Source: Bacteroides faecis (lineage in GTDB: Bacteria > Bacillota > Clostridia > Oscillospirales > Acutalibacteraceae). Taken from it: a DNA stretch of 63,171 bases. The stretch covers positions 1-63,171 of the forward strand of contig CAVFTC010000001.1 in the NCBI GenBank assembly GCA_963625295.1, given 5' to 3'. How positions within the stretch are numbered: the first letter of the stretch is position 1; every line of letters starts with the position of its first letter. Shown one piece after another: positions 34,767 to 49,941 of the stretch. A program made the position numbers and the translations under genes. The notes under the pieces are model-generated. The model did not search any database and was not told the origin of the DNA. It saw nothing but the letters and a program-made list of their open reading frames with translations.

Positions 34767-35849
34767 TCAGTCAAGCTTTACCTTGTATGTCCAGCCCATG
34801 TCGTCCTCAACATGACCTGTCTGCATACCGTAGAGCGTATCGTAAAGCTTCTGAGCGATCGGACCTACATTGCCGTCGGCAACCTTGTAATCCTCGCCCA
34901 TGTAATAAAGTGTGCCGATCGGAGAGATAACTGCGGCAGTACCGCTGGCAAATACCTCCTTGAGAGTGCCTGCCTTGGAGGCTGCGCATACATCGTCGAT
35001 TGAAAGGCGTCTCTCCGATACCTTTACTCCCCACTTCTTGAGAAGCTCGATGACGGACTTTCTTGTAATACCGGGAAGAATCGTACCCATAAGCGGAGCA
35101 GTGATGACCTCGTCGCCGATTACGAAGAAGGCGTTTGAAGTGCCGATCTCCTCAACATACTTATGCTCAACAGCGTCAAGCCAAAGAACATCCTTGCAGT
35201 CATGCTCCATAGCCTTTGCCGAAGCCTTCATGCCACCTGCATAGTTGCCGCCGCACTTTGCAAAGCCTGTACCGCCGACAGCCGCACGGATGAATTCATC
35301 CTCAACATAAATCCTTGTCGTGTGAAGTCCGCCGTCGTTTGCGGCATAGTAAGAACCGACGGGGCAAAGAATGATGATAAAGCGATAATGCTTTGCCGGA
35401 AGAACGCTGAACGAAACCTCGTCGCCGAAGATAAACGGTCTGATATAAAGAGCGGTTGCCGGCTCGGTGGGTATCCAATCCTTATCAACGGTAATAAGCT
35501 GGTTGATGGCGTCAAAGAAAATATCCTTTTCCATATGCGGAATACACATACGGTCATTGGTTCTGTTCATACGCTCAAAGTTCTCCTCGGGTCTGAAAAG
35601 CTGAACATCGCCCGACGGAGTTTTATATGCCTTCATGCCCTCGAACATCATCTGGGCATAGTGGAGCACGCATGAAGCGGGTTCAATGGCGATCGGCTCA
35701 TGCGGAACAATTCTTCCGTCATGCCAGCCCTGTCCCTCATCGTAGTCGATCATAAACATATGATCCGTGAAATATTTACCGAAGCCGAGCTTCTTCTGAT
35801 CCGGCTTCTCCTTCGGATGTGTTGTTCTTGTTACTGGAAATGTATACAT
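34767..35849 (-). CDS. ilvE: Branched-chain amino acid aminotransferase
   Basis: About 360 aa from the ATG at 35849 (AAAGGAG RBS). Type IV aminotransferase motifs: FGKYFTDHMF, EGMKAY, GGTG.AK.GGNYA. Confidence 0.9.
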   Translation of the reverse strand: MYTFPVTRTTHPKEKPDQKKLGFGKYFTDHMFMIDYDEGQGWHDGRIVPHEPIAIEPASCVLHYAQMMFEGMKAYKTPSGDVQLFRPEENFERMNRTNDRMCIPHMEKDIFFDAINQLITVDKDWIPTEPATALYIRPFIFGDEVSFSVLPAKHYRFIIILCPVGSYYAANDGGLHTTRIYVEDEFIRAAVGGTGFAKCGGNYAGGMKASAKAMEHDCKDVLWLDAVEHKYVEEIGTSNAFFVIGDEVITAPLMGTILPGITRKSVIELLKKWGVKVSERRLSIDDVCAASKAGTLKEVFASGTAAVISPIGTLYYMGEDYKVADGNVGPIAQKLYDTLYGMQTGHVEDDMGWTYKVKLD

Positions 35850-35881
35850 TTCTGTCGCTCCTTTCAAAGCATTCATTTTGT

Positions 35882-35917
35882 CAATGCCGCACATCTCAAT
35901 TGTGCGGATTTGCCTTA
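35882..35917. repeat. Solo MITE terminus (contains the internal CCGCACA/TGTGCGG hairpin)
   Basis: The reverse complement reads TAAGGCAAATCCGCACAATTGAGATGTGCGGCATTG. Its terminal TAA is the stop codon of the C-N hydrolase gene. Confidence 0.75.
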
Positions 35918-36721
35918 TAATTCATAGAGATCGGGTTTTCTGTCGTTGAAAACATTGATCGAGCTTCTTATATCCTTTATTATTCCGAAATCGCAGTCAG
36001 CTGTGATGACCTCCTGCGCCTCGCCTGCCGCAGCGAGCACCTCGCCCCACGGGTCGATTATCTGCGAATGACCGCCGAAAACTGCGTCCGGTGTTTTTCC
36101 GCAGGAGTTGCAGCAGACAACAAACATCTGATTTTCAATCGCTCTTGCTCTTGTGAGTGTAACGATGTGTTCCTTTCTCGCAAGAGGCCACTGCGACACC
36201 ATAAACAGCATGTCAATGCCCCTTAGGGCAAGGCTTCTGACAAGCTCGCAGAAGCGGATATCGTAGCAGATTACGACGCCGCACTTATGTCCGTCAAGCT
36301 CGAAGGTCACAAGCTTTTCGCCGAAGCTAAAATATTTGTGCTCGTCCATCGGGGTGAAAAGGTGCGTCTTGTCATATTCGGCAACGACATCGCCCTTACG
36401 GTTGAAAACAAACGCCGTGTTGTAAATCCCGCCGTTCTTTTCGTTGGCGATACTGCCGGCAACGATGTTTACATTAAGCTCCCTTGCCAACGCCGAAAAG
36501 GTCTTTTTCAGCCTCTCGCCGTCTTTGTCACAATAGCTCGAAAGATTTTCCTTGGGATAATATCCCGTCGTCCATGTTTCGGGAAGAACGATAACATCGG
36601 ATTTTTCTTTCGCTGCCGTCTCCCTTATCAGTCTGACAGCCTCGTTGTAGTTATATTCAACATCGCCGAGCTTCATATCAAGCTGAATGCAGGAAGCCTT
36701 CATTGTATTATTCATAATCAT
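35915..36721 (-). CDS. Carbon-nitrogen hydrolase (nitrilase/omega-amidase superfamily)
   Basis: Catalytic E-K-C contexts: VLPE, the Lys in YDKTHLF and the Cys in GVVICYDIRF. Alternative starts are 36739, 36715 or 36703. Confidence 0.8.
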   Translation of the reverse strand: MIMNNTMKASCIQLDMKLGDVEYNYNEAVRLIRETAAKEKSDVIVLPETWTTGYYPKENLSSYCDKDGERLKKTFSALARELNVNIVAGSIANEKNGGIYNTAFVFNRKGDVVAEYDKTHLFTPMDEHKYFSFGEKLVTFELDGHKCGVVICYDIRFCELVRSLALRGIDMLFMVSQWPLARKEHIVTLTRARAIENQMFVVCCNSCGKTPDAVFGGHSQIIDPWGEVLAAAGEAQEVITADCDFGIIKDIRSSINVFNDRKPDLYEL

Positions 36722-37247
36722 AACCTGCCTTGACAGCACCCTTGTTCACATCAAGGAGATCAAGGTGACGGGCGGAAACAACCTTCTTGAGTGCGTCATC
36801 GGTATAATCAATCGAAAACTGCGGCACTTCCTTGAGAATCTTGCCCGTGATTATCATATTCGCAAGGGTCGGCGTTCCGTTATCGTTCGCCATTTTTGTT
36901 GCAGGAATATAATATACATCAACATCTGTTCTGTCAATCTTTTTGTCGATCATTGTTGAATCAACAAAAATCTTTCCGCCGCTGACAACATCGTTTTCGT
37001 ATTTTTCAAGTGACGGAAGATTCATTGCAACAAGCACATCCGGCTTGTCAACGATTGGAGAGCCGATCGGCTCGTCGCTGATAATCACGGAGCAGTTGGC
37101 AGTGCCGCCTCTCATTTCCGGTCCGTAGGACGGAAGCCAGCTGACCTGCTTGCCCTCGATAAGTCCCTTATATGCAAGGAATTTGCCTGCAAACAGAATT
37201 CCCTGTCCGCCGAAGCCTGCGAATAACATTCTGCAAGTGCTGCTCAT
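36708..37247 (-). CDS. 2-oxoacid:ferredoxin oxidoreductase, gamma subunit
   Basis: 179 aa; the GFGGQGI motif typical of POR/KOR/VOR gamma subunits. Confidence 0.85.
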
Positions 37248-37999
37248 TTTTCTTCCTCCTTTGCATAGATATCCTTGTAAACGCCGAGAGGATAGTAAGG
37301 AATCATGTTCTCCTCTGCCCAGTCAAGAGCCTTCTGCGGAGTCATTCCCCAGTTTGTAGGGCAGGTTGAAATAACCTCAACGAGAGAAAAGCCCTTGCCC
37401 TCAAGCTGATTCTTGAATGCCTTTTTGATAGCCTTTTTAGCGTTCTTGACATTTTTTACATTGTTGACAGCAACTCTCTCAAGATATGCCGCACCGTCAA
37501 CATTTGAAAGAAGCTCGCAAACCTTAACGGGATAGCCGACGGTGTTGACATCTCTGCCGTAGGGTGAGGTCTGGGTGACCTGACCGGGAAGCGTTGTCGG
37601 AGCCATCTGACCGCCCGTCATACCGTAAATAGCATTGTTAACGAAAATAACGGTGATATTCTCCCGTCTTGCAGCGGCATGAACCGTCTCGGCAGTACCG
37701 ATAGCGGCAAGGTCGCCGTCGCCCTGATATGTGAATACAACCTTTGACGGGTCGCTTCTCTTAACGCCTGTTGCAACGGCAGGAGCACGGCCGTGAGCCG
37801 CCTGAACAAAATCACATGTGAAATAGTTATATGCCATAACAGAGCAGCCGACCGATGCGACGCCGATCGTATCACCCTCGATTCCAAGCTCATCAATTAC
37901 CTCTGCAACCAGACGGTGAATAATACCGTGAGTACAGCCGGGACAATAGTGAAGCGTTGCGTCCGTCAATGATTTCGGTTTTTCAAATACAACTGACAT
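37244..37999 (-). CDS. 2-oxoacid:ferredoxin oxidoreductase, beta (TPP-binding) subunit
   Basis: CPGCTHG, GDGD....G and [10 protein letters not shown] motifs. The start at 37999 overlaps the alpha stop (TAATG). Confidence 0.85.
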
Positions 38000-39057
38000 T
38001 ATTCTGCACCTCCGTTTGACATGATAGCCGAAAGAACATCCTCCGGCGTCGGGATCATTCCGCCGACACGGTTGCAAAGCTCAACCGGTCTTTTGCAATC
38101 GATCGCAAGCTTCACATCGTCGATCATCTGACCCATGTTCATTTCAACAGTTATAAATCTCTTGCACTTCTCGGCAGCAGCCTTGAGCGGCTTTGTCGGG
38201 AACGGCCAGAGCGTGATCGGTCTTATCATGCCGACCTTGACGCCTCTCTTGCGTGCCTCATTGACTGCGTTCTTTGCCACACGGGCGGTGATACCGAACG
38301 CAACAACGCAAACCTCGGCGTCCTCCATGAGATATTCCTCGTACATCGTTTCGTTTTCTTCGATCGTCTTATATTTCTGATATCTCTCGAAATTCTTTAT
38401 TTCAAGCTCCTCGGGCTTGAGGTAAAGCGAATTGACTATGTTATGCTCTCTCTCACACTTTGTGCCGGTGAGTGCCCACGGCTTTTCAACCGGAGTTACC
38501 TCGGCAACATCGAGGGAAACCGGCTCCATCATCTGACCCATTGTGCCGTCGGCAAGGATCATTGCAACCATTCTGTATTTATCCGCAAGCTCAAAGCCCT
38601 TGACGGTGAGGCTTGCCATTTCCTGAACGGAAGCCGGTGCAAGTACGATATTGTGGTAATCGCCGTGTCCGCCACCCTTTGTTGACTGCCAGTAATCCGA
38701 CTGTGAGGGCTGAATTCCGCCGAGTCCGGGGCCGCCACGCTGAACATTGACCACGAGTGCGGGAAGGTCGCAGCCGGCGAGATATGAAATACCCTCGCTT
38801 TTAAGCGAAACTCCGGGGCTGGAGGAGGAGGTCATGACTCTCTTGCCTGTTGACGAAACGCCGATAACCATGTTGATTGCAGCGATCTCGCTCTCCGCCT
38901 GCAGGAATGTTCCGCCGATCTTCGGCATACGCTTTGACATGTAAGCCGCAACCTCTGTCTGCGGAGTTATGGGATAACCGAAGTAATGTCGGCAGCCTGC
39001 TCTGATAGCAGCCTCGGCAATTGCTTCGTTGCCTTTCATAAGTACTTTATCTGACAT
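37999..39057 (-). CDS. vorB: 2-oxoacid:ferredoxin oxidoreductase, alpha subunit (VorB-like)
   Basis: [36 protein letters not shown]-terminus typical of VorB/KorA-type alpha subunits. The longer track ORF runs into the ferredoxin gene. Confidence 0.8.
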
Positions 39058-39062
39058 TTTCT

Positions 39063-39269
39063 TCACCTCTCTACCGTAATAACACAATCGGGGCACATTG
39101 TAGCGCAGAAGGCGCATCCGATACACTTTTCCTGTTCCGTCACAACTGCGGGATGATGTCCCTTGTTGTTCAAAGTCGTCTCTGACAAATGAACTATTCC
39201 CTTGGGACAAGCGTTCACGCAAAGTCCGCAGCCCTTGCAAAGGTCTGTTTTGAATGTTACTTTAGCCAT
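39063..39269 (-). CDS. 2x[4Fe-4S] ferredoxin (delta subunit)
   Basis: Two CxxCxxCxxxCP motifs in 68 aa. Confidence 0.9.
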   Translation of the reverse strand: MAKVTFKTDLCKGCGLCVNACPKGIVHLSETTLNNKGHHPAVVTEQEKCIGCAFCATMCPDCVITVER

Positions 39270-39281
39270 TTGACATTCCTC

Positions 39282-39938
39282 CTAATTTATTTTCGCCTGT
39301 AGGGTAAGCGGAAGCATATTGCTCACTCGCCCGTACAGCTCTTTATAAAGCGTCTTTTTTACGGTAGTCATCGCAACGGGAAGCCCCGTAAGCTTTGAAA
39401 CCTCATCGGCATATTTGAGCGAATCAAGAACATCCTGAGCGGTCGTCTCCTCGCCGAGATTTGAGTTGTTTATTATAGCCGTAAATTTCATTGAACCGGC
39501 TTTTTCGATTTCATTCATGACCTCAAGGGTGCTGTAAGCGTCCCTTGTCAGCGGTCTGTACATGTTTATTACAAGAAACATCTCATAGTCGTTTTCCCGT
39601 ACTATGCTTTCGGAATAGCGGCCGAGAGCGTATGCGCCTCTGTCGTCGCCGCCGATATCCATAACAGCGTATTCCGTGCGGTCGTCAATGACAGAATATA
39701 TATCCTGCGGCAGCGAGGGAAGATCAACATTTGAGCTTGCAAAGTCCGAGCAGATAAGTCTTATCCCGGCGGCTTTAAGCTCCTTTTCGCTGTCCTTGGT
39801 TCTGAAATACGGGTTGACGATATCCAAATCCGCAACAGCCACCTCAAGACCCTGCTGTCTGAGCTTAAAAGCGTAATTGACCGCTATATTCGTTTTTCCG
39901 CTGCCGTAATGACCGGCAAAAAGCGTTATGCGCTTCAT
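39282..39938 (-). CDS. MinD/ParA/CooC-like P-loop ATPase
   Basis: Deviant Walker A GHYGSGKTN; 218 aa; first gene of the oxidoreductase operon. Confidence 0.7.
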   Translation of the reverse strand: MKRITLFAGHYGSGKTNIAVNYAFKLRQQGLEVAVADLDIVNPYFRTKDSEKELKAAGIRLICSDFASSNVDLPSLPQDIYSVIDDRTEYAVMDIGGDDRGAYALGRYSESIVRENDYEMFLVINMYRPLTRDAYSTLEVMNEIEKAGSMKFTAIINNSNLGEETTAQDVLDSLKYADEVSKLTGLPVAMTTVKKTLYKELYGRVSNMLPLTLQAKIN

Positions 39939-40338: not shown

Positions 40339-42609
40339 TTACAGCTGATTACGGATGATTTTGCCGCTTATAGTCTTTGGAAGCTCGTCCTTGAACACAA
40401 CGATTCTCGGGTACTTGTAAGGAGCGGTGTGCTTCTTAACATAGTTCTGAATTTCTTTTTTAAGCTCCTCGGTCGGCTCTGTGCCCTTGGTAAGGACAAT
40501 GGAAGCCTTGACGACCTGTCCTCTTACCTCGTCGGGAGCAGCGGAAACGCCGCACTCAAGAACATAAGGAAGCTCCATGATAACATTTTCGATCTCGAAC
40601 GGTCCGATACGGTAGCCGGACGATTTGATAACATCGTCGATACGGCCGACATACCAGAAATATCCGTCCTCATCACGCCATGCGATATCGCCCGTGTGAT
40701 AAACGCCGTCGTGCCAAACCTCGTCTGTACGATCCTGATTTCTGTAGTAGCCGAGGAATATACCGCACGGTACTTTCTCGGAAGTGTTGACGCAGATTTC
40801 ACCGGTTTCACCGATATCCGCTTCCGTTCCGTCGGGACGAAGAATCTTGATGTCGTAAAGCGGCGTCGGCTTGCCCATTGAGCCGGGCTTCGGAGTCATT
40901 CCGGTGAGCGTTGCTATTCCAAGAGTCATCTCCGTTTGACCGAAGCCCTCCATAAGCTCAAGTCCGGTAGCATTATAGAACTGGCGGAATACCTCCGGGT
41001 TAAGTGCCTCACCGGCTGTTGTTGCGTGACGGATAGAGGAAAGATCGTACTTTGCGAGATCCTCCTTTATCATCATTCTGTACATCGTCGGAGGTGCGCA
41101 GAATGTTGTGATGTTATATTGCTTGAACATCGGAAGAATATCCGACGCATCGAAGCGGTCGAAGTTATATACAAATACTGCGCCCTCGCAGAGCCACTGT
41201 CCGTAGAGCTTGCCCCAAAGAGCCTTGCCCCAGCCGGTGTCGGAGATTGTAAGGTGAAGTCCGTCCTTGCTTACGCAGTGCCAATATTTAGCGGTGATAT
41301 AGTGTCCGAGCGGATATTTGTAGGAATGGGTTGCGATTTTCGGATAGCCCGTTGTGCCGGAGGTGAAGAACATAAGCATCGGATCGTTTCCGCACGGTGC
41401 GTCCTCTTCCCTTCTGTATCTTCTGGAGAACAGGCTGTATTCGCTGTCGAAGCTGTGCCAGCCCTCACGCTCGCCGCCGACAATGATTTTGTTGACGAGA
41501 GTATGCGTCTTTGCGTCGGCGATGTCAACCTGATGAGCGGTGTCGCCGTCGGCTGTGCAAAGAATTGTCGTTACTCCTGCCGCCTCAAATCTGTACTCAA
41601 AGTCATGGTCAACAAGAAGATTCGTTGCCGGAATTGCGATTGCGCCGATCTTATGAAGCGCAAGGATTGCAAACCAGAACTGATAATGACGCTTGAGAAC
41701 AAGCATTACCCTGTCGCCCTTCTTTATGCCGAGCGACTTGAAGTAGTTGGCCGCCTGTGCCGAGTGCTCCTTGACATCCTTAAATGTGAAGATGCGTTCC
41801 GTCTTATCGCGGTCAACATGAACGAGTGCACGCTTGTCAGGGGATTTTTTTGCAATTTTATCAACGATATCAAAAGCGAAGTTGAATTCATCCTCATGAT
41901 TAAAATCAATGGAAACAAGATTTCCGTTTTCGTCCTCTGTTGCGTCAATAAACTTCTCGCAAACATAGCTGCCCTTTGCCTTTACGCCCTTGACAGCTCT
42001 TTCGTGAACGATATTCGTTACCGTATCATCACTTGCCATGACCATCGCAAGGAAGAGACAATCCCTGCCGTCGATGGCAACCATTCCGTGAGGCGTTGAG
42101 GAGTTATAATAAATGCTGTCGCCCTCGTTAAGAATCTCCTCATGATTTCCGACTCTTACTCTCAGTGAACCGCTGATAACGATATCGAACTCCTGACCAC
42201 CGTGAGTTACGGTGCTTATCGGTTTATTTTCAAGCTCCGCGTCATACTCGTATCTAACCCAGTACGGCTCGGAAAGCTTTTTTCTGAAATTCGGTGCAAG
42301 GTTTTTGATTTCGATTCCGTTCTCGCTGGCGGTGATCTGACCCTTGCCCAGTCTTGTAACGGTATAGGATGAAAGCACGGCGCTGTGACCTTCAAGAAGA
42401 TCCGTAATGCCAATGTCAAAAGCAAGTGCACACTTGTGAATAAAAGTGAAAGGAAGGTCAACCGTTCCGCTCTCATAGAGCCTGTAGGTTTCAACAGAGA
42501 CTTCAGACTTCTCCGCCATTTCCTCAACGGTAAAGCCGCATATGTCTCTCATTTCCTGGATACGCTCAGCAACCTCATAAAGCTTGTTTGATTCGTTTTG
42601 ATTTGACAT
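40339..42609 (-). CDS. XRE-HTH + cupin domain fused to an AMP-forming medium-chain acyl-CoA synthetase
   Basis: N-terminal ~190 aa: HTH (ICGFTVEEMAEKSEVSVETYRLYESG) and cupin (GQEFDIVISGSL...YYNSSTPHGM). Remainder: ACSM/MacS-like ligase (MFFTSGTTGYPK, YGQTE, YHTGD, SGKIIR). Confidence 0.85.
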   Translation of the reverse strand: MSNQNESNKLYEVAERIQEMRDICGFTVEEMAEKSEVSVETYRLYESGTVDLPFTFIHKCALAFDIGITDLLEGHSAVLSSYTVTRLGKGQITASENGIEIKNLAPNFRKKLSEPYWVRYEYDAELENKPISTVTHGGQEFDIVISGSLRVRVGNHEEILNEGDSIYYNSSTPHGMVAIDGRDCLFLAMVMASDDTVTNIVHERAVKGVKAKGSYVCEKFIDATEDENGNLVSIDFNHEDEFNFAFDIVDKIAKKSPDKRALVHVDRDKTERIFTFKDVKEHSAQAANYFKSLGIKKGDRVMLVLKRHYQFWFAILALHKIGAIAIPATNLLVDHDFEYRFEAAGVTTILCTADGDTAHQVDIADAKTHTLVNKIIVGGEREGWHSFDSEYSLFSRRYRREEDAPCGNDPMLMFFTSGTTGYPKIATHSYKYPLGHYITAKYWHCVSKDGLHLTISDTGWGKALWGKLYGQWLCEGAVFVYNFDRFDASDILPMFKQYNITTFCAPPTMYRMMIKEDLAKYDLSSIRHATTAGEALNPEVFRQFYNATGLELMEGFGQTEMTLGIATLTGMTPKPGSMGKPTPLYDIKILRPDGTEADIGETGEICVNTSEKVPCGIFLGYYRNQDRTDEVWHDGVYHTGDIAWRDEDGYFWYVGRIDDVIKSSGYRIGPFEIENVIMELPYVLECGVSAAPDEVRGQVVKASIVLTKGTEPTEELKKEIQNYVKKHTAPYKYPRIVVFKDELPKTISGKIIRNQL

Positions 42610-42651: not shown

Positions 42652-42947
42652 AACAAAAAATCCGTCCCAAAGTCATTAGAACTTTGAGACGGATTTGAAT
42701 ATCCGCGGTACCACTCAAATTGCGATCTGCTATTGCTTCTCGCCTCTCTGCAGGATCTGACAATCCCTCAACACTGACGTAGTTGTCACGGGAGAAACTA
42801 CTGTAGTTTTCATCTCTCCGGCTCGGAAGTGATGGGCTTTACATTTACCTCGCTATCGGCTCGCACCAAACGCCGACTCTCTGAAAGGACATAAACGCAA
42901 CCGTCTTCGTCACAGCCTTTGTTTCAACAGGTTATTTGTACCTGTTG
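42652..42947 (-). promoter_or_regulatory. T-box riboswitch leader, putative Ile (AUC) specifier
   Basis: Minus strand shows a K-turn (TGACGAAG / CTTCCGAGCC), AGAGAG bulge, distal loop GGTGCGA, T-box AATTTGAGTGGTACCGCGG (42703-42721) and the terminator TCCGTCTCAAAG...CTTTGGGACGGA + TTTTTT. Confidence 0.85.
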
Positions 42948-42953
42948 CGGTAC

Positions 42954-42982
42954 ATTATAAGATACTTTTCACAATTTTTCAA
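42954..42982 (-). promoter_or_regulatory. Promoter of the T-box(Ile) leader
   Basis: On the minus strand: TTGAAA, 17 nt, TATAAT. Confidence 0.7.
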
Positions 42983-43019: not shown

Positions 43020-45518
43020 TTACGCAGTTACAACAGAATTTGCCTTTTGCAGTCCGTATTTCTTGATTGCGTCCTCACGCATCTTGTATTTAAGAATCTT
43101 ACCGGCAACATTCATCGGGAACTCGGACACAAAGTCAATGTACTTCGGCACTTTATGCTTCGCCATATGAGAAAGAACATAGTCCTTCATCTCCTGCTCG
43201 GTCATGGTTTCGCCCTCCTTGAGGATAATGCAAGCCATTATCTCCTCGCCGAGTCCCTCGTCGGGAACGCCGATTACCTGAACATCCTTGACCTTCGGGT
43301 GGGTGTAAATGAACTCCTCAATCTCCTTGGGATAGATATTCTCGCCGCCACGGATAATCATATCCTTAAGTCTGCCTGTGATTCTGTAGTTGCCCTCCGG
43401 AGTGCGGCACGCAAGGTCGCCGGTATGAAGCCAGCCGTCCTTGTCGATTGCGCTTGCCGTAGCCTTCGGCATTTTATAGTAACCCTTCATGATGTTGTAT
43501 CCACGGGCAACGAACTCACCGGTCACATTGTCCGGGCATTCAAGACCCGTATCGGGGTCAACGATTTTACATTCGATTTTCGGAAGCGGATGACCGACAG
43601 TAGCCACACGATCCTCCAGCGGGTCGTCAGTGCTGCTCATCGTACAGCCCGGAGATGATTCCGTCTGACCGTAAACGATTGTGATTTCGGTCATATGCAT
43701 TTTTTCGACAACCTCACGCATCTTTGAGATCGGACACGGCGAGCCTGCCATGATACCCGTTCTCATGTATGAAAAATCGGTCTTTTCAAAGTCGGGGTGC
43801 TGTAGCATTGCGATAAACATCGTCGGAACGCCGTGGAAAGCCGTTATACGCTCGGAATTTATACACGCAAGCGATGATTTCGGCGAGAAATACGGTAATG
43901 GGAGAGCCGTTCCGCCGTGGGTCATGATGGCAGTCATGGCAAGAACCATGCCGAAGCAATGGAACATCGGAACATGGATCATCATTCTGTCCGCCGTTGA
44001 AAGATCCATTCTGTCGCCGATACACTTACCGTTGTTTACGACATTGTAGTGGGTAAGCATAACGCCCTTCGGGAAGCCTGTTGTACCGGAGGTGTACTGC
44101 ATATTGCATACATCGTCCCTCCTGACAAGAGAAGCCATTCTGTAGACCTCCTCGACAGGAACCTCGCTCGACTTGTCAACCGCCTGCTCCCATGTCATAC
44201 AGCCCTGCTGCTCATAGCCGACCGTAATAATATTTCTCAAAAACGGCAATCTCTTTGCGTGGAGCTTTTCGCCGCTCTTGGTGCTTTCCAGCTCAGGGCA
44301 AAGCTCAGCCATGATCTCGTCATAGTGTGAGTCTCTGTAGCCCTTTATCATAATCAGCGTATGAGTATCCGACTGTCTGAGCAGATATTCCGCCTCGTGA
44401 ATTTTATATGCCGTGTTCATTGTAACAAGAACAGCGCCGATTTTGGTGGTCGCCCAAAACGAAATATACCACTGCGGAACATTGGTTGCCCAAACGGCAA
44501 CATGAGAGCCGGCTTTTACGCCCATTGCAATAAGCGCTCTCGCAAAGGTATCAACATCGTCACGGAACTGCGCATATGTTCTCGTATAGTCAAGCGTTGT
44601 ATATTTGAATGCAAGCTGATCGGGAAACTCCTCAACCATTCTGTCAAGAACCTGCGGGAATGTCTCCTCGATAAGCTCCTCTTTTTTCCAGATGAATTTG
44701 CCTGTATGGGTCTTGTTGTAGTAGTATTTCTTCTTGCTTGTCTCGTCCGCAACAGTCTCCATAAAGCTCTCATAATGAGTCAAAATGATTTCAAGATCGT
44801 CTATCGACTCGAACCACTCGGGATTCCATTCAACGCAAACAAAGCCGTTGTAATTTATCGAGCCGAGAGCATTCATCATGTCCTTGATAGGCATTGCGCC
44901 CTCGCCGATGAGAGTGTGCTCGCCTGCCTTCACGGCGTCGGTCAGATGGACAAGCTTGACATATGCGCCAAGGTTGGTAATGGTCTTTTCCGAATCCTCG
45001 CCGCCGACGAAGTATGTTTCATACATATTCCAATCTGCGCCGATAAAGTCGCTTGCAAAATAGTTCATCAAATCGCAGAGCCTTGTCGTGTCGGCAAAAA
45101 TGCCCGTCGTTTCGACAAGGACGATAACATTGTGCTTTTCGCCCTCTGCGATAGCCTTGCCGATGAACTCAAGCGCCTTTTCGTAAGCGTCTTCGCCACC
45201 CTCAACATAGAGCTTGACATAGGGAATGTTTATGTTGCTTGCAACGGTGATAGCCGAGTTCATTTTTTCAATATTTTCGTCGGAATTATCTGCGGCGTTG
45301 CAGTTTGAATTTATGCAAACTATGCTCTTTTTCGAGTTGATGAGCTTTCTTTTGGTTGCCGAAGCCATGTCAGGATTAAACGGTGAGGTTCTGCCTGAAA
45401 ACATTGCGTCACGAAAATCGTGGATCTCAACTCCGCCGTATTTCAGCTCATCCGCCATATTGAGAAAGTCATCAAAGCTTTTATTCTTATGAAATCTTGT
45501 AGAAAAAGCTAATTTCAC
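43020..45518 (-). CDS. Xylose-isomerase-like TIM-barrel domain fused to an AMP-dependent acyl-CoA ligase
   Basis: N-terminal ~270 aa resemble AP-endonuclease-2 / sugar-phosphate-isomerase TIM barrels. The C-terminal ~560 aa are a FadD-type ligase (MQYTSGTTGFPKGVMLTH, YGQTE, LHTGD, AGKILK). GTG start with a GGAGGG RBS, 2 nt after the upstream stop. Confidence 0.8.
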   Translation of the reverse strand: MKLAFSTRFHKNKSFDDFLNMADELKYGGVEIHDFRDAMFSGRTSPFNPDMASATKRKLINSKKSIVCINSNCNAADNSDENIEKMNSAITVASNINIPYVKLYVEGGEDAYEKALEFIGKAIAEGEKHNVIVLVETTGIFADTTRLCDLMNYFASDFIGADWNMYETYFVGGEDSEKTITNLGAYVKLVHLTDAVKAGEHTLIGEGAMPIKDMMNALGSINYNGFVCVEWNPEWFESIDDLEIILTHYESFMETVADETSKKKYYYNKTHTGKFIWKKEELIEETFPQVLDRMVEEFPDQLAFKYTTLDYTRTYAQFRDDVDTFARALIAMGVKAGSHVAVWATNVPQWYISFWATTKIGAVLVTMNTAYKIHEAEYLLRQSDTHTLIMIKGYRDSHYDEIMAELCPELESTKSGEKLHAKRLPFLRNIITVGYEQQGCMTWEQAVDKSSEVPVEEVYRMASLVRRDDVCNMQYTSGTTGFPKGVMLTHYNVVNNGKCIGDRMDLSTADRMMIHVPMFHCFGMVLAMTAIMTHGGTALPLPYFSPKSSLACINSERITAFHGVPTMFIAMLQHPDFEKTDFSYMRTGIMAGSPCPISKMREVVEKMHMTEITIVYGQTESSPGCTMSSTDDPLEDRVATVGHPLPKIECKIVDPDTGLECPDNVTGEFVARGYNIMKGYYKMPKATASAIDKDGWLHTGDLACRTPEGNYRITGRLKDMIIRGGENIYPKEIEEFIYTHPKVKDVQVIGVPDEGLGEEIMACIILKEGETMTEQEMKDYVLSHMAKHKVPKYIDFVSEFPMNVAGKILKYKMREDAIKKYGLQKANSVVTA

Positions 45519-45520
45519 AA

Positions 45521-46936
45521 TTAACCCTCCTCGTATGCTATCTTGTTCAGTGCGCTGACATATGCACGGATGCTTGCGCCGATAATATCTGTCGAAATGC
45601 CTGTTCCGGAATAGAGCTTTCCGGTCGAGCTTCTGAGCTTAACGAGCGCATGACCCATGGCCTCACGACCCTCGGTAACGGCTTGAATCTGGAAATCGTC
45701 CAGCTCGTAGTGATGTCCGATAATCTGCTCGATTGCAAGAAACGCCGCATCAATCGGACCGTCTCCGACGCTCACACCGCTGACCACCGTGCCATCCTTG
45801 ACAAGCTTGATGTTAGCGGTTGCGGTAATAATGTTACCGCTGTTGATAACATAGCTTTCAATCGAATAGCTTGAGGGAACCTGCAATGCGGAGGAGGCTA
45901 TAATTACTTCAAGCTCCTTTGTGCCGACAAAGTCCTTCTTAACGGCAACACGCTTGAACGCCTCATAAACATTTGAATTATCCTCGGGAGAAAGGTCGTA
46001 GCCGATTTTTTTAACCGCCTTTATAACGGTTGCTATCGTGTCGTTTTTATCAAGAGTGAGGCTCTCGCCGTCCTCGTTTACACCTGTTTCAAACGGCGTA
46101 TTCTCACTCTTGGAGGTGTTGAGCATTCTTTTTATTTGACCCGTAACACGCTGAAGCTCTGTCGTCCTTATCTTGCTTGAGGCCTTTATAGAATCACCTC
46201 TGAGGGTGAATATCTTCATGATTTTTTCAACCGTCGGGAAGTTGAAATTGTCTGCCGTAACCTTGATCTGCGACGCTCCGGCTTCGATTGCGGCGAATGC
46301 GGAGGCGGAGGCCATGTTCATTGAGTCAACGACCTCAACGCCGACCGTAGCATTCTTGGCGGACGGAACATTCTCAAAAATATCCGAGATAAAGCCGCCG
46401 AATTCGGACGGGAACATCGTACCCTCGGAGTCGCAAACAGTGACCCTCGTTGCGCCTGCCTTTATCGCTTCTTCTATCGCCTGATACAGGAACGGTCTTT
46501 CGGCTCTCACTGCGTCCTCAGCCGAGAATTCAATGCTGTCGGTGTACTTTTTGCACTCGGTGATAAGCTCTGTTACCATGCTCATCACCACCGGCGGCTT
46601 TTTGCCGCACTTGAACTCCATCTGAACCGCAGACATCGGGAGAGAAACCTTAAGAGAAAACTTCTTTGCACCCTTTGCGCAGTTATAAGCCGTTTCAACG
46701 CCCGCCGCATCATAACCAACATCAACGGCGATTTCCGAATGCTTCATAAGCGAAGCGATCGTTTTTATAAGAAGAACATCGGTTGATGTGTTCTTTATTT
46801 TCGGCATCTCGATGATATCGCAGTGCAGCTTGTCCATCTGCTTTGCGATCTCGATCTTCTCCTTAAAGCTTAAGGAATGGCTGGCTGACGACTCGCTTTC
46901 TCTGAGCGTCACATCGGATAAAATTACTTTTCTCAT
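45521..46936 (-). CDS. 2-isopropylmalate-synthase homolog (HMGL-like TIM barrel + LeuA regulatory domain) with degenerate catalytic motifs
   Basis: 471 aa from the ATG at 46936 (AAAGGAG RBS). Colinear with LeuA, but DTTLRDGEQ is SDVTLRESES, HTHxD is VEVVD and GIGERAGN is ADNFNFPT. The C-terminal LeuA-dimer-like domain is intact. Confidence 0.8.
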   Translation of the reverse strand: MRKVILSDVTLRESESSASHSLSFKEKIEIAKQMDKLHCDIIEMPKIKNTSTDVLLIKTIASLMKHSEIAVDVGYDAAGVETAYNCAKGAKKFSLKVSLPMSAVQMEFKCGKKPPVVMSMVTELITECKKYTDSIEFSAEDAVRAERPFLYQAIEEAIKAGATRVTVCDSEGTMFPSEFGGFISDIFENVPSAKNATVGVEVVDSMNMASASAFAAIEAGASQIKVTADNFNFPTVEKIMKIFTLRGDSIKASSKIRTTELQRVTGQIKRMLNTSKSENTPFETGVNEDGESLTLDKNDTIATVIKAVKKIGYDLSPEDNSNVYEAFKRVAVKKDFVGTKELEVIIASSALQVPSSYSIESYVINSGNIITATANIKLVKDGTVVSGVSVGDGPIDAAFLAIEQIIGHHYELDDFQIQAVTEGREAMGHALVKLRSSTGKLYSGTGISTDIIGASIRAYVSALNKIAYEEG

Positions 46937-46959: not shown

Positions 46960-47233
46960 AAAAAAACAAAGTCCCGGAAGTATTCAAACTTCCGGGACGA
47001 TAAAACATGTTTACCGCGGTACCACCCGCATTGCCTAAACGGCCTCTTCGGATTCTGACAAATCCTAAGCTGTGATAACGGTGCTTGCCGTAGCTCCTTA
47101 TACAGTAAAGACGGTTGGGGAGCTCTGCTCGGATACGAGACAGCAATTAAATTTCCATATCGGCTCACACCTACCGCCGACTCTCTGAAATCAGAAATAA
47201 AACGCTTAATATCTTCAACGCATTTCAAATATT
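46960..47233 (-). promoter_or_regulatory. T-box riboswitch leader, putative Leu (CUC) specifier
   Basis: Minus strand shows a K-turn (GCGTTGAAGATA / TATCCGAGCA), AGAGAG bulge, distal loop GGTGTGA, T-box GCGGGTGGTACCGCGG (47014-47029) and the terminator GTCCCGGAAG...CTTCCGGGAC + TTTGTTTTTTT. Confidence 0.85.
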
Positions 47234-47239
47234 GCAGTT

Positions 47240-47268
47240 ATTATAGTAAACTTTTTTTAATTTGTAAA
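47240..47268 (-). promoter_or_regulatory. Promoter of the T-box(Leu) leader
   Basis: On the minus strand: TTTACA, 17 nt, TATAAT. Confidence 0.7.
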
Positions 47269-47303: not shown

Positions 47304-48125
47304 TTACTTCAAAAGCTCCGCATTGAGCGTTTTTCCGTAAGCTGTTGCGGCATTGACAAGACCCTCATCGGGAATCGTCTGCATAATGGGCTTGCCGGTG
47401 CTGAGAATTCTGCAATAGATCTCCGCTGATTTCTCGATTGTATGCATAAGACCGAAGGCTGCGTCAAATGTGTTGCCCGATACAAAAAGTCCGTGGTGCG
47501 CCCATACGATGGCGTCGTATTTCTTTTGAAGCTCGCAGGTCTTGTGAGCTATCTCCGCTCCGCCGGGAATCATCCATTCAACAACGCCGACGCCGTTCGG
47601 GAAAATGATCGGGCACTCCGTCATGCTCTCCCAGAGAACTCTTGAGAAAGCCTCGGAGGTAAGCGGAAGAACAAATGTGAGAGCGATAATGTTAACGGGA
47701 TGGGCATGGTAGATAACTCTGCAAGCGCCGTCCGTTGCCGCAACACGAACGCTGTGGTTCATGAAATGGGTCGGGAACTCGCTTGTCGGGCCGCCGCCGT
47801 TAACAAGACCCCATACGATTCTGTAGCCGTCGCCTGCGTCGTTGATTTCAAGAATGCACATATTTGCCGCCGGATCTCTGATAACATTCTGGAAGAACTT
47901 ACCCGTACCCGTTACCATGAAATACTCATTTTTAAGGTTGTCCGCCTGAACGCCGAGATCAACCCACGGCCTGTCATATGTAAAGTAAGGCTTGCAAGCC
48001 TCTACCTCTTCGGCTGTCATACGGTAGGAAAGGTTTCCGCCGTTGCCCTCATGCCAGCCCTGCTCATAGCCGTCGTTGCAGGTAAGAGCAAACTTTTTGA
48101 TTACATCAAGATCCAAAATACTCAT
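47304..48125 (-). CDS. rhaD: Rhamnulose-1-phosphate aldolase (class II aldolase)
   Basis: 273 aa, colinear with E. coli RhaD: GW.E.NGGNL, VTG.GKFF.NV..DPAAN, PTSE.P.HF, HAHP.N.IALT, HGLF..G. Confidence 0.85.
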   Translation of the reverse strand: MSILDLDVIKKFALTCNDGYEQGWHEGNGGNLSYRMTAEEVEACKPYFTYDRPWVDLGVQADNLKNEYFMVTGTGKFFQNVIRDPAANMCILEINDAGDGYRIVWGLVNGGGPTSEFPTHFMNHSVRVAATDGACRVIYHAHPVNIIALTFVLPLTSEAFSRVLWESMTECPIIFPNGVGVVEWMIPGGAEIAHKTCELQKKYDAIVWAHHGLFVSGNTFDAAFGLMHTIEKSAEIYCRILSTGKPIMQTIPDEGLVNAATAYGKTLNAELLK

Positions 48126-48195
48126 TTTAAAAACTCCTATATTTAAAATTCAAATTATGTTACCACTTTAAGCCGCTGTTGTCAATCATGAGTTC

Positions 48196-48296
48196 TTAAG
48201 GCAACACCGCACAAATCGAGGCGCACGCCTTGTTCGGTAACCGCTGATTAAACCATAGCACAATTCGCACACCTCAATTGTGCGGTATTGCCTTAA
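48196..48296. mobile_element. Internally deleted (~101-bp) MITE derivative retaining both termini
   Basis: TTAAGGCAACACCGCACAAATCGAGGCGCACGCCTTG...ATTCGCACACCTCAATTGTGCGGTATTGCCTTAA. It encodes the araB C-terminal KAIPHN*. Confidence 0.85.
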
Positions 48297-49941
48297 TCTC
48301 TTTAAGACGCTTCATGACATTGTTCTCTCCCCTTCCGAAATAATCGTGGAGGGTTTTATACTCGGCAAAAAGCTTATCGTAAAGCTCAACATTCTCGGGA
48401 ATCGGATAATAGACCTTATCCTTGACCTTGCCGAGAGCTGCCGCACCGTCATAAAGGCTGTCATAGCCGCCCTTCTCCGCTCCTGCGGCACATGCGCCGT
48501 AAATCGCACTGCCGAGCGCACCGCCCTGTTCGCAGTCGGCGATCTTGATAGGCATATTGATAACATCGGCATAGATCTGCATCGTCATCGGATCCTTCTG
48601 ACTGATACCGCCTGCGGCATAGAAGGAGTTGACATCGACGCCGTTCTCTTTGAACACATCAATAATCATTCTTGTTCCGTAGGCCGTTGCTTCAATCAAG
48701 GCTCTGTAAATATCCTCGGGCTTTGTTCTGAGCGTCATTCCGAGTATCATACCCGAAAGATCCGCATCGACAAGCACAGAACGAACACCGTTCCACCAAT
48801 CAAGCGCAACAAGTCCGCTCTCGCCGGGCTTTTTCTGTTCACACTTTTGACGGAGGAATTTATGTATATTTACTCCCTGCTTCTCCGCCTCGTCATAGTA
48901 GCTCTTCGGCAGACAGTTGTCTATGAACCAGCTGAAGTGGTCGCCGACGCAGCACTGACCGGCTTCGTAAGCATAAAGTCCGGGAAGAATACCGTCGGCT
49001 ACAACGCCGCTGATGCCCGGTACGGGAATTTCCTCCTCGCTCAGAAGCATATGACAGGTTGAAGTACCCATGATAGCCAGCATCTCGCCCGGCTTCGTGA
49101 TGCCTACGGCAGGAACGAAAACATGAGCGTCAATGATAGGAACGGCAACAGCCGTGCCCTCCTTGAGTCCTGTCAGCTCGGCAAACTCAGCCGTGACCTC
49201 GCCCGCCTTTGAGCCGAGAGGAAGAATATCTCTTGAGAATTTCTCGTCAATAACATGCTCCATTCTTGGGTCAAGAGCTTTGAAAAACTCGTCCGACGGG
49301 TATCCGTTTTTCTTGTTCCACATGCCCTTGTAGCCGGCGCAGCAGGAATTGCGGATCTCATGACCGCACATCTGCCAGACGACCCAGTCGGCTGCTTCAA
49401 TAAAACGGTCGGCCTCGTCATAAATCTCGGGGGCTTCGTCAAGAATCTGCCAAAGCTTAGGAATCGCCCACTCGGAGGAAATCTTTCCGCCGTAGAGCTT
49501 GAGCCAGTCCTGATTCATCTTTTCGGCAATCTCATTGAGCTTTGTTGCCTGAGCCTGCGCGGCATGGTGCTTCCAGAGCTTAACATAAGCGTGCGGCTCG
49601 TCTTTAAACTTATCAATAAAGCAAAGCGGCGTGCCGTCCTTCTTGACGGGCATAACCGTGCAGGCGGTGAAATCAAGTCCAAGACCGATGATATCCTCCG
49701 CATTTACTCCGCTCTTTTTTATAACATCGGGAATCGTTGTTTTGAGCACATCAAGATAATCCTGCGGATCTTGAAGCGCCCAGTCGGCTCCGAGCTTTTT
49801 GCCGCTCGGAAGCGTCTCGTCCATTACGGCATGAGGATAATCGAGAACCGAGGTTGCAAGCTCCTCGCCTGTTTTCACATCAACGAGCAGCGTTCTGCCC
49901 GAAAGAGTACCGAAATCCACGCCGATTGCGTATTTAGCCAT
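48274..49941 (-). CDS. araB: Ribulokinase (FGGY family)
   Basis: 555 aa, closely colinear with Bacillus AraB: [39 protein letters not shown]. Confidence 0.9.

Follow-up and report, generated by a model that had tools for sequence, protein, structure and literature searches.

A leucine-regulated fusion of a TIM barrel and an acyl-CoA ligase in gut and rumen Clostridia as a gene candidate for isovalerate activation

Some anaerobes of the rumen and gut make leucine by carboxylating isovalerate, a route that has been known physiologically since the 1960s. Two further systems are useful for comparison. The triosephosphate isomerase (TIM) barrel AsbF makes an acid that is then activated by an adenylating enzyme, and pseudoenzyme regulators of the HisZ type are dead paralogues found beside the ATP-using committed step in the supply of the same amino acid. 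For rumen ruminococci, carboxylation of isovalerate to leucine goes back to the work of Allison, as cited in PMC7356843. Among ligases for branched short-chain acids, purified MbcS of Staphylococcus aureus activates 2-methylbutyrate and isobutyrate to their coenzyme A (CoA) thioesters, and isovalerate is a poor substrate (PMC10026030). Full-text literature searches found no T-box-controlled acyl-CoA ligase, no bacterial isovalerate-CoA ligase and no gene-level assignment of the isovalerate-activating step. Here we describe a gene in a stretch of 63,171 nucleotides (contig CAVFTC010000001.1 of GenBank assembly GCA_963625295.1, deposited as Bacteroides faecis and placed in the Acutalibacteraceae by its GTDB lineage), referred to below as the window. 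It encodes a TIM barrel joined to an acyl-CoA ligase, behind a LeuA paralogue and a T-box leader. The ANL ligase, the PF01261 barrel, the LeuA paralogue and the T-box are all of known kinds; their conserved combination is previously uncharacterised. We read the ligase as activating isovalerate for leucine synthesis through a VorB-type 2-oxoacid:ferredoxin oxidoreductase (OFOR) and a branched-chain aminotransferase (BCAT), with a non-catalytic barrel and a dead LeuA that may sense leucine. Taken as a whole, we regard this reading as evenly poised between right and wrong.

The fusion is a single, uninterrupted open reading frame of 832 amino acids (positions 43020..45518 on the reverse strand, as are all features below). 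By Pfam it contains AP_endonuc_2 (PF01261, residues 22-233, 61.2 bits against a cutoff of 31.1), AMP-binding (PF00501, residues 292-681, 303 bits) and AMP-binding_C (PF13193, residues 732-807, 63.8 bits, above the gathering score). The linker between the domains (residues 271-289, 44652..44708) is modelled with low confidence (predicted local distance difference test, pLDDT, 53-63). A scan of one genome per species gave 417 relatives, and the orthologue figures given here are taken from the best 80 loci. In these, nearly the whole fusion protein can be aligned, at 65-97% identity, and the hosts are metagenome-assembled genomes (MAGs) of gut and rumen Clostridia; Ruminococcus sp. CAG:488 and CAG:563 are 96-97% identical to the window. 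A clean, stop-free, full-length orthologue is present in 73 of the 80 loci, the other seven being cut by contig ends or carrying one stop. When the fusion was used in a protein search, at least 7,999 of 8,000 scored 90%-identity clusters had E <= 1e-100, and PF01261, PF00501 and PF13193 occur together in all 120 clusters listed, at lengths of 751-842 amino acids. The fusion is thus a genuine and widespread protein, with an architecture that is common in gut Clostridia, only generically annotated ("AMP-binding protein" or "fatty-acyl-CoA synthase" in the databases) and uncharacterised.

A preliminary description of this locus, made from the sequence, had placed the domains of two activities in one polypeptide, which the reading frame and the Pfam domains bear out. 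It had also called the fusion unusual, and given the number of clusters and the hundreds of species genomes that carry it, this no longer holds. Its impression that the architecture is unlike characterised enzymes has stood, as full-text searches found no paper describing a TIM-barrel–acyl-CoA ligase architecture; the possibility it raised, that the architecture would prove common and already characterised, is true in its first half, and its second half was not found. It had further suggested a check of the junction (about 44680-44750) for a sequencing or assembly frameshift that might have joined two genes. The region of 44.4-45.2 kb is spanned without indels by independently assembled contigs from four public runs. 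Together with the 73 clean orthologues and the 120 three-domain clusters, this rules the artefact out; nothing was found in its favour, and we consider its probability negligible.

The ligase half (residues 290-832 and the stop codon, 43020..44651) has both AMP-binding domains and the adenylation motifs of ANL-superfamily acyl-CoA synthetases. These motifs (TSGTTGxPKG, YGQTE, TGD and the C-terminal catalytic lysine) are invariant across 74 sequences. Among the orthologues this half is 79-99% identical, compared to values down to 35-42% for the barrel and down to 41-53% for the LeuA-like protein encoded upstream. The ratio of nonsynonymous to synonymous substitution rates (dN/dS) is 0.013-0.05 for the ligase, and 0.013 in unsaturated close pairs; these and the following ratios are based on the closest pairs only, dS being saturated in many pairs. 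Judged by its sequence, this half of the protein is intact, and its conservation is extreme. Its top NCBIfam match, by far the best, is PRK12583, "fatty acid CoA ligase family protein", with a sub-threshold score of 691 bits against a curated cutoff of 832, and this model leaves the TIM barrel uncovered.

The unit to which the fusion belongs is headed by a Leu T-box leader (46990..47227; Rfam RF00230, 94.9 bits against a gathering score of 93). Its specifier is CUC at 47139-47137, followed by G47136, and a terminator hairpin lies at 46971-46998, so that score, leucine codon and terminator/antiterminator all agree with the Leu class. A candidate sigma-70-like promoter precedes it (47240..47268, TTTACA-17-TATAAT, 11 of 12 consensus matches). 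In 69 orthologous leaders the antiterminator motif is found in 67, and CUC followed by a purine occurs in the same register in most. The leaders place the fusion in a leucine T-box regulon, in the window's clade and beyond it.

Between leader and fusion lies the gene for the LeuA-like protein (471 amino acids, 45521..46936), which consists of an HMGL-like barrel and a LeuA_dimer domain (Pfam). In each of the 74 related loci whose upstream sequence is available, this gene immediately precedes the fusion, usually with a gap of 6-15 nt. In the window, the GTG start of the fusion follows the TAA of the LeuA-like gene by 2 nt and has GGAGG ahead of it; the two genes are therefore translationally coupled. 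The protein scores below every cutoff of the NCBIfam LeuA models (293 against 532 bits). In an alignment to solved structures of 2-isopropylmalate synthase (LeuA), DTTLRDGEQ is replaced by SDVTLRESES and the metal-binding His-x-His by E-V-V, so that neither the equivalog score, the Arg/Asp pair of DRE-TIM enzymes nor the His-x-His of this synthase is present. The former catalytic and metal positions vary in 67 orthologues: R12 can be R, C, S or K, and E13 can be E, R, D, Q or K; the first metal His is E, K, Q, R or S, and the second S, N, V or A. The LeuA_dimer domain (PF08502) is recognised at 103.8 bits against 24.9, over model positions 5-130 of 131. Conservation within the protein is highest here (mean column conservation 0.73-0.85, compared to 0.50-0.64 for the barrel), and the hallmark motifs of the domain can be aligned to the regulatory domain of Mycobacterium tuberculosis LeuA. 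As predicted from these residues, the protein is a catalytically dead LeuA paralogue that keeps a regulatory domain of the leucine-binding type. The preliminary description had seen the Leu T-box, a degenerate LeuA and a complete ligase with the motifs quoted above, and on all three points the conserved leaders, the sub-threshold score with its replaced motifs and the invariant ligase motifs agree with it. NCBI names of the LeuA-like family include "hypothetical protein" and not LeuA, and JGI uses "2-isopropylmalate synthase"; with the latter label, automated reconstruction from MAGs could wrongly imply de novo leucine synthesis and prototrophy. One protein of 577 amino acids (P0230) appeared to be a triple fusion of LeuA-like protein, TIM barrel and ligase. 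It was dismissed owing to internal deletions and a frameshifted tail: it joins a LeuA-like N-terminus to the C-terminal portion of the barrel and an internally deleted ligase, and probably reflects gene damage or a low-quality assembly.

The barrel itself (residues 1-270, 44709..45518, with the GTG start at 45518) is a xylose-isomerase-like TIM barrel. Modelled with AlphaFold from 71 sequences, it has a pLDDT of 91 and a predicted TM-score (pTM) of 0.85. Foldseek gives UlaE as the best match (TM-score 0.76-0.80, probability 1.00), followed by ketose 3-epimerases, AsbF, Art22, MJ1311 and DgpB-C, all at 11-18% identity; profile searches give Art22 (2e-12), MJ1311 (4e-10) and AsbF (5e-9). A sequence search against the PDB gave weak partial matches only, and the profile and fold searches of the barrel gave no close functional relative. 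The PF01261 score is above gathering and the predicted (beta/alpha)8 fold is like that of solved members, in agreement with the AP-endonuclease-2-type barrel that the preliminary description had seen in residues 1 to about 270. That description had also pointed to four motifs as contexts of a metal site. Three of them do hold ligands, namely VLVET (E136), VHLTD (H191) and CVEWNPE (E230); GVEIH does not, as its E31 is invariant but lies outside the four canonical ligands, and the fourth ligand column holds N164, canonically an Asp. The window thus reads E136-N164-H191-E230 in place of the Glu-Asp-His-Glu tetrad of the UlaE and ketose 3-epimerase type. Among the 74 orthologues the patterns are ENHE (23), ENHV (18), ENQV (9), EDHE (8), EDHD (6), GQHV (3) and EQHV (3), with four more patterns found in one orthologue each. 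The canonical E-D-H-E/D is kept in 14 of the 74 and the fourth acidic ligand is absent in 37, with Val in place of E230 in about half of them all. Barrels of the clade with the LeuA-like partner have also lost the HHPYR and KRW motifs that flank the ligands; these regions read DWNMYETYF, LWNVSAAYQ or IWQISTAYF, and then EWNPEW or VWDPKW. Other residues are invariant (F5-S6-T7, E31, T137, W163, D194, W231 and W235). They lie at or just past the C-terminal ends of predicted strands, and may therefore still line the classical pocket. The dN/dS ratio of the barrel is about 0.035-0.19, and 0.035 in the unsaturated close pairs in which the ligase has 0.013, indicating a domain that evolves fast yet is clearly constrained by purifying selection. 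Because the canonical metal and acid-base signature is lost while purifying selection is kept, the barrel is most likely non-catalytic in this clade, with a structural, ligand-binding or docking role.

The wider family of TIM barrels and ligases puts this erosion into context. Distant fusions (P0188, P0202, P0148 and L082) have the same architecture as that of the window. In two loci, L083 and L088, separate adjoining genes in the reverse order encode the ligase (554 and 556 amino acids) and the barrel (269 and 267 amino acids), and the order of ligase then TIM was also found by tblastn in L084-L087. A scan with five canonical stand-alone barrels gave matches in more than 582 genomes, and 80 loci were kept. 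Single-frame TIM-ligase fusions make up 36 of these, with ligase halves 67-76% identical to that of the window, and include Pelotomaculum propionicicum and Ca. Formimonas warabiya; another 5 are split (ligase then TIM), 38 are stand-alone barrels, and in one the ligase is about 3 kb off. None of the 80 has a LeuA-like neighbour. All aligned relatives that lack a LeuA-like partner keep the E-D-H-E tetrad together with LLIETNG, LWDxHHPYR, HVHxKDS and SLEWxKRW. Erosion of the catalytic signature is confined to the clade with the LeuA-like protein, and coincides with the gain of this partner. Of 11 loci with canonical fusions that were tested, 9 have a T-box directly upstream (specifier CUC in 7, CUG in 1, ambiguous in 1), and the fusions that have a Leu T-box and no LeuA-like partner include that of P. 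propionicicum. Leucine control is therefore a property of the TIM-ligase module, and older than the LeuA-like partner. In the neighbourhoods of the distant modules, both fused and split (L081-L088 and L098-L171), no neighbour recurs other than T-boxes and, occasionally, genes for OFOR or indolepyruvate:ferredoxin oxidoreductase. Genes of these two kinds were seen near LeuA-less TIM-ligase modules in L081, L124, L127, L131, L150 and L152, a hint of a general tie between the ligase family and reductive carboxylation. The neighbourhoods of the stand-alone canonical barrels hold mostly a pepF-like peptidase and housekeeping genes and give no clue to the chemistry: in 19 of the 38 (L093-L172) the barrel follows a pepF-like oligoendopeptidase gene at a distance of about 80 nt, and these loci are also near DnaD/DnaC-like and rnpA-yidC-jag genes.

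Just downstream of the fusion there is a second T-box, of the Ile class (42682..42922; Rfam, 103.2 bits against 93), with the specifier AUC at 42833-42831, a terminator at 42658-42696 and a candidate sigma-70-like promoter (42954..42982, TTGAAA-17-TATAAT, 11 of 12 consensus matches). The first gene behind it (40339..42609) encodes a protein of 756 amino acids with HTH_3, Cupin_2 and an acyl-CoA ligase (Pfam), for which AcylCoAsynMbcS ranks first in NCBIfam (432 bits, under its cutoff of 850). This is a second unusual ligase fusion, with a helix-turn-helix of the XRE type, and is duplicated in tandem in L039, L070 and L150; its N-terminus looks like a ligand-sensing regulator module. The rest of the unit (34767..39938) encodes a ParA/Mrp-like P-loop protein, the alpha, beta and gamma subunits of a VorB-type OFOR (VorB 545.7 bits against a cutoff of 399), a CN-hydrolase that is possibly an omega-amidase-like enzyme, and BCAT (465 bits against a cutoff of 307). 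Together these genes resemble a complete salvage set from branched-chain acid to amino acid. The block of MbcS-like ligase, OFOR and BCAT adjoins the fusion in about half of the 80 loci, on one side or the other; L079 and L082 likewise have BCAT near the fusion.

Some further observations concern the region around the fusion. In two public runs, contigs join position 42724 in the Ile leader to 47156 in the Leu leader and omit 4,431 bases, that is, the whole unit of LeuA-like gene and fusion; on the short side the join is supported by 22 letters. Either a k-mer artefact, the two T-box leaders being similar, or a real deletion variant could account for this. In the same runs, several short contigs agree with the ligase gene only over stretches of 38 bases, at window positions 43330-43448, and then diverge, which fits other species in the samples with near-identical segments of the highly conserved ligase. 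Directly upstream of the Leu unit lie genes for a class II aldolase and an FGGY-family sugar kinase (47304-49941), which are syntenic in the closest relatives only and are probably unrelated to the unit.

The mechanism we propose for the fusion would run as follows. Uncharged tRNA-Leu would allow read-through of the leader, and the dead LeuA paralogue and the fusion would be made from their coupled genes. The ligase half would activate isovalerate (3-methylbutyrate) to isovaleryl-CoA; the neighbouring VorB-type OFOR would carboxylate this reductively to 2-oxoisocaproate, and BCAT would convert the latter to leucine. Because MbcS handles isovalerate poorly, a second ligase would be needed for this acid, and labour would be shared with the MbcS-like ligase under the Ile T-box, which would serve the conversion of 2-methylbutyrate to isoleucine. 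The TIM barrel would descend from a catalytic partner of this ligase family, de-catalysed here and retained. That the ligase is an isovalerate-CoA ligase we infer from the Leu T-box and the context of OFOR and BCAT. Several points weigh against this proposal. The substrate is assigned from regulation and gene context alone, and the OFOR and BCAT of the window sit behind the Ile T-box, not the Leu T-box. The ligase falls below the cutoff of its best NCBIfam family, which itself has a generic name. The window's barrel still has E136, H191 and E230, with Asn at the Asp position, so that residual metal binding or catalysis is possible. Two points bear on contact between the dead LeuA and the barrel: the rates of the barrel and the LeuA-like barrel covary (partial r 0.68, Mantel p 0.001), yet a BCAT control reaches 0.88, so that the signal is non-specific; and among the top matches listed there was no triple fusion of LeuA-like protein, TIM barrel and ligase, nor any other direct sign of contact.

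These last two points concern the most speculative part of the proposal, namely that the dead LeuA may be a leucine-sensing subunit that would exert fast feedback inhibition on the ligase, an ATP consumer, perhaps through docking on the eroded barrel. The idea arises because the leucine-binding regulatory domain is the only well-conserved part of the dead LeuA. We consider it doubtful that the dead LeuA is such a HisZ-like subunit, docked on the de-catalysed barrel of an isovalerate-CoA ligase fusion. If it is, fast allosteric feedback would be added to the transcriptional T-box control of leucine salvage from a fermentation acid. The LeuA regulatory domain would also have found a new regulatory role, and two pseudoenzyme modules would control one active enzyme.

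The preliminary description had suggested channelling instead, with isomerisation, dehydration or decarboxylation of an acid ahead of its activation, and this is the main rival of our reading. An active, metal-dependent TIM isomerase, epimerase or dehydratase would make or modify a carboxylic acid, and the fused ligase would form its CoA thioester. The pairing of TIM barrel and ligase is kept in three arrangements (fusion, split with ligase then TIM, and fusion with a canonical site), which is classic evidence of a functional link. The precedent of AsbF fits such a scheme, and AsbF is among the fold and profile matches of the barrel. All relatives without a LeuA-like partner retain the full tetrad and its flanking motifs, and in the window three of the four ligands remain, next to an Asn, in a domain under purifying selection. 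However, within the window's clade the ligand set varies freely (ENHV, ENQV, GQHV), E230 is replaced by Val in about half of the orthologues, and HHPYR and KRW have been lost. None of the neighbourhoods examined suggests a candidate substrate, and we know of no leucine precursor that needs isomerase- or dehydratase-type chemistry before activation with CoA. With 14 canonical tetrads in 74 orthologues and the flanking motifs gone, channelling is weakened for this clade, where it seems rather unlikely as an account of the fusion; for the ancestral TIM-ligase module it is plausible, and a fair hypothesis.

Two other explanations differ on the product or on the partner. Isovaleryl-CoA could serve mainly as a primer for the synthesis of iso-branched fatty acids, sparing scarce leucine. 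S. aureus MbcS plays this role for 2-methylbutyrate and isobutyrate (PMC10026030), induction through a Leu T-box would suit the sparing of leucine, and many fusion loci have no adjoining OFOR or BCAT. The recurrence of a VorB-type OFOR and BCAT beside the fusion speaks against it as the main role, which we consider improbable, although both roles could coexist. It is also conceivable that the active site of the LeuA-like protein has been re-modelled, and that this protein, as a working enzyme, forms a new condensation pathway with the TIM-ligase protein towards a leucine precursor. Its barrel retains the fold motifs DxTL, EDAxR and CD, and its strict co-location and translational coupling with the fusion would agree with a shared pathway. 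But orthologues differ at the positions of the catalytic Arg, of the metal Asp and of the two metal His residues, and no part of the protein is less conserved than the barrel, making this explanation very unlikely. Under isovalerate activation for leucine, the reading that we prefer, the fusion family, which is abundant, conserved and leucine-regulated, would be a concrete gene candidate for the activating step of an old pathway, and would bear on the need of fibre-degrading Clostridia for branched-chain volatile fatty acids. The family is also a clean natural case of domain decay, in which one clade has lost a catalytic signature exactly where it has a new partner, with the domain still constrained.

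In comparison with known systems, the ligase half is most like PRK12583 and, in function, S. aureus MbcS. It has both AMP-binding and AMP-binding_C in full, along with every adenylation motif, and its inferred role, the activation of an exogenous branched short-chain acid, would be that of MbcS (PMC10026030). Unlike both, the fusion carries an N-terminal TIM barrel and is preceded by a Leu T-box. Its ligase also belongs to a different subfamily from MbcS, which is instead the best match of the neighbouring ligase, and its presumed substrate isovalerate is the acid that MbcS handles poorly. The barrel shares the fold and the positions of the ligand columns with other PF01261 barrels (UlaE, ketose 3-epimerases, AsbF, Art22 and MJ1311), but at 11-18% identity, with an Asn for the Asp ligand and without the flanking catalytic motifs; its ligand set varies among orthologues, it is fused to a ligase, and it has no linked sugar-metabolism context. 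The LeuA-like protein has the HMGL-like barrel and LeuA_dimer domain of 2-isopropylmalate synthase and heads a Leu T-box unit, but it has lost the catalytic Arg, Asp and His-x-His, at positions that now vary, and is about 40 amino acids shorter than the LeuA models. HisZ offers an analogy for the proposed mechanism only. Here too a dead paralogue is the neighbour of an ATP-using step and has kept what would be its amino-acid-binding part, but the families are unrelated.

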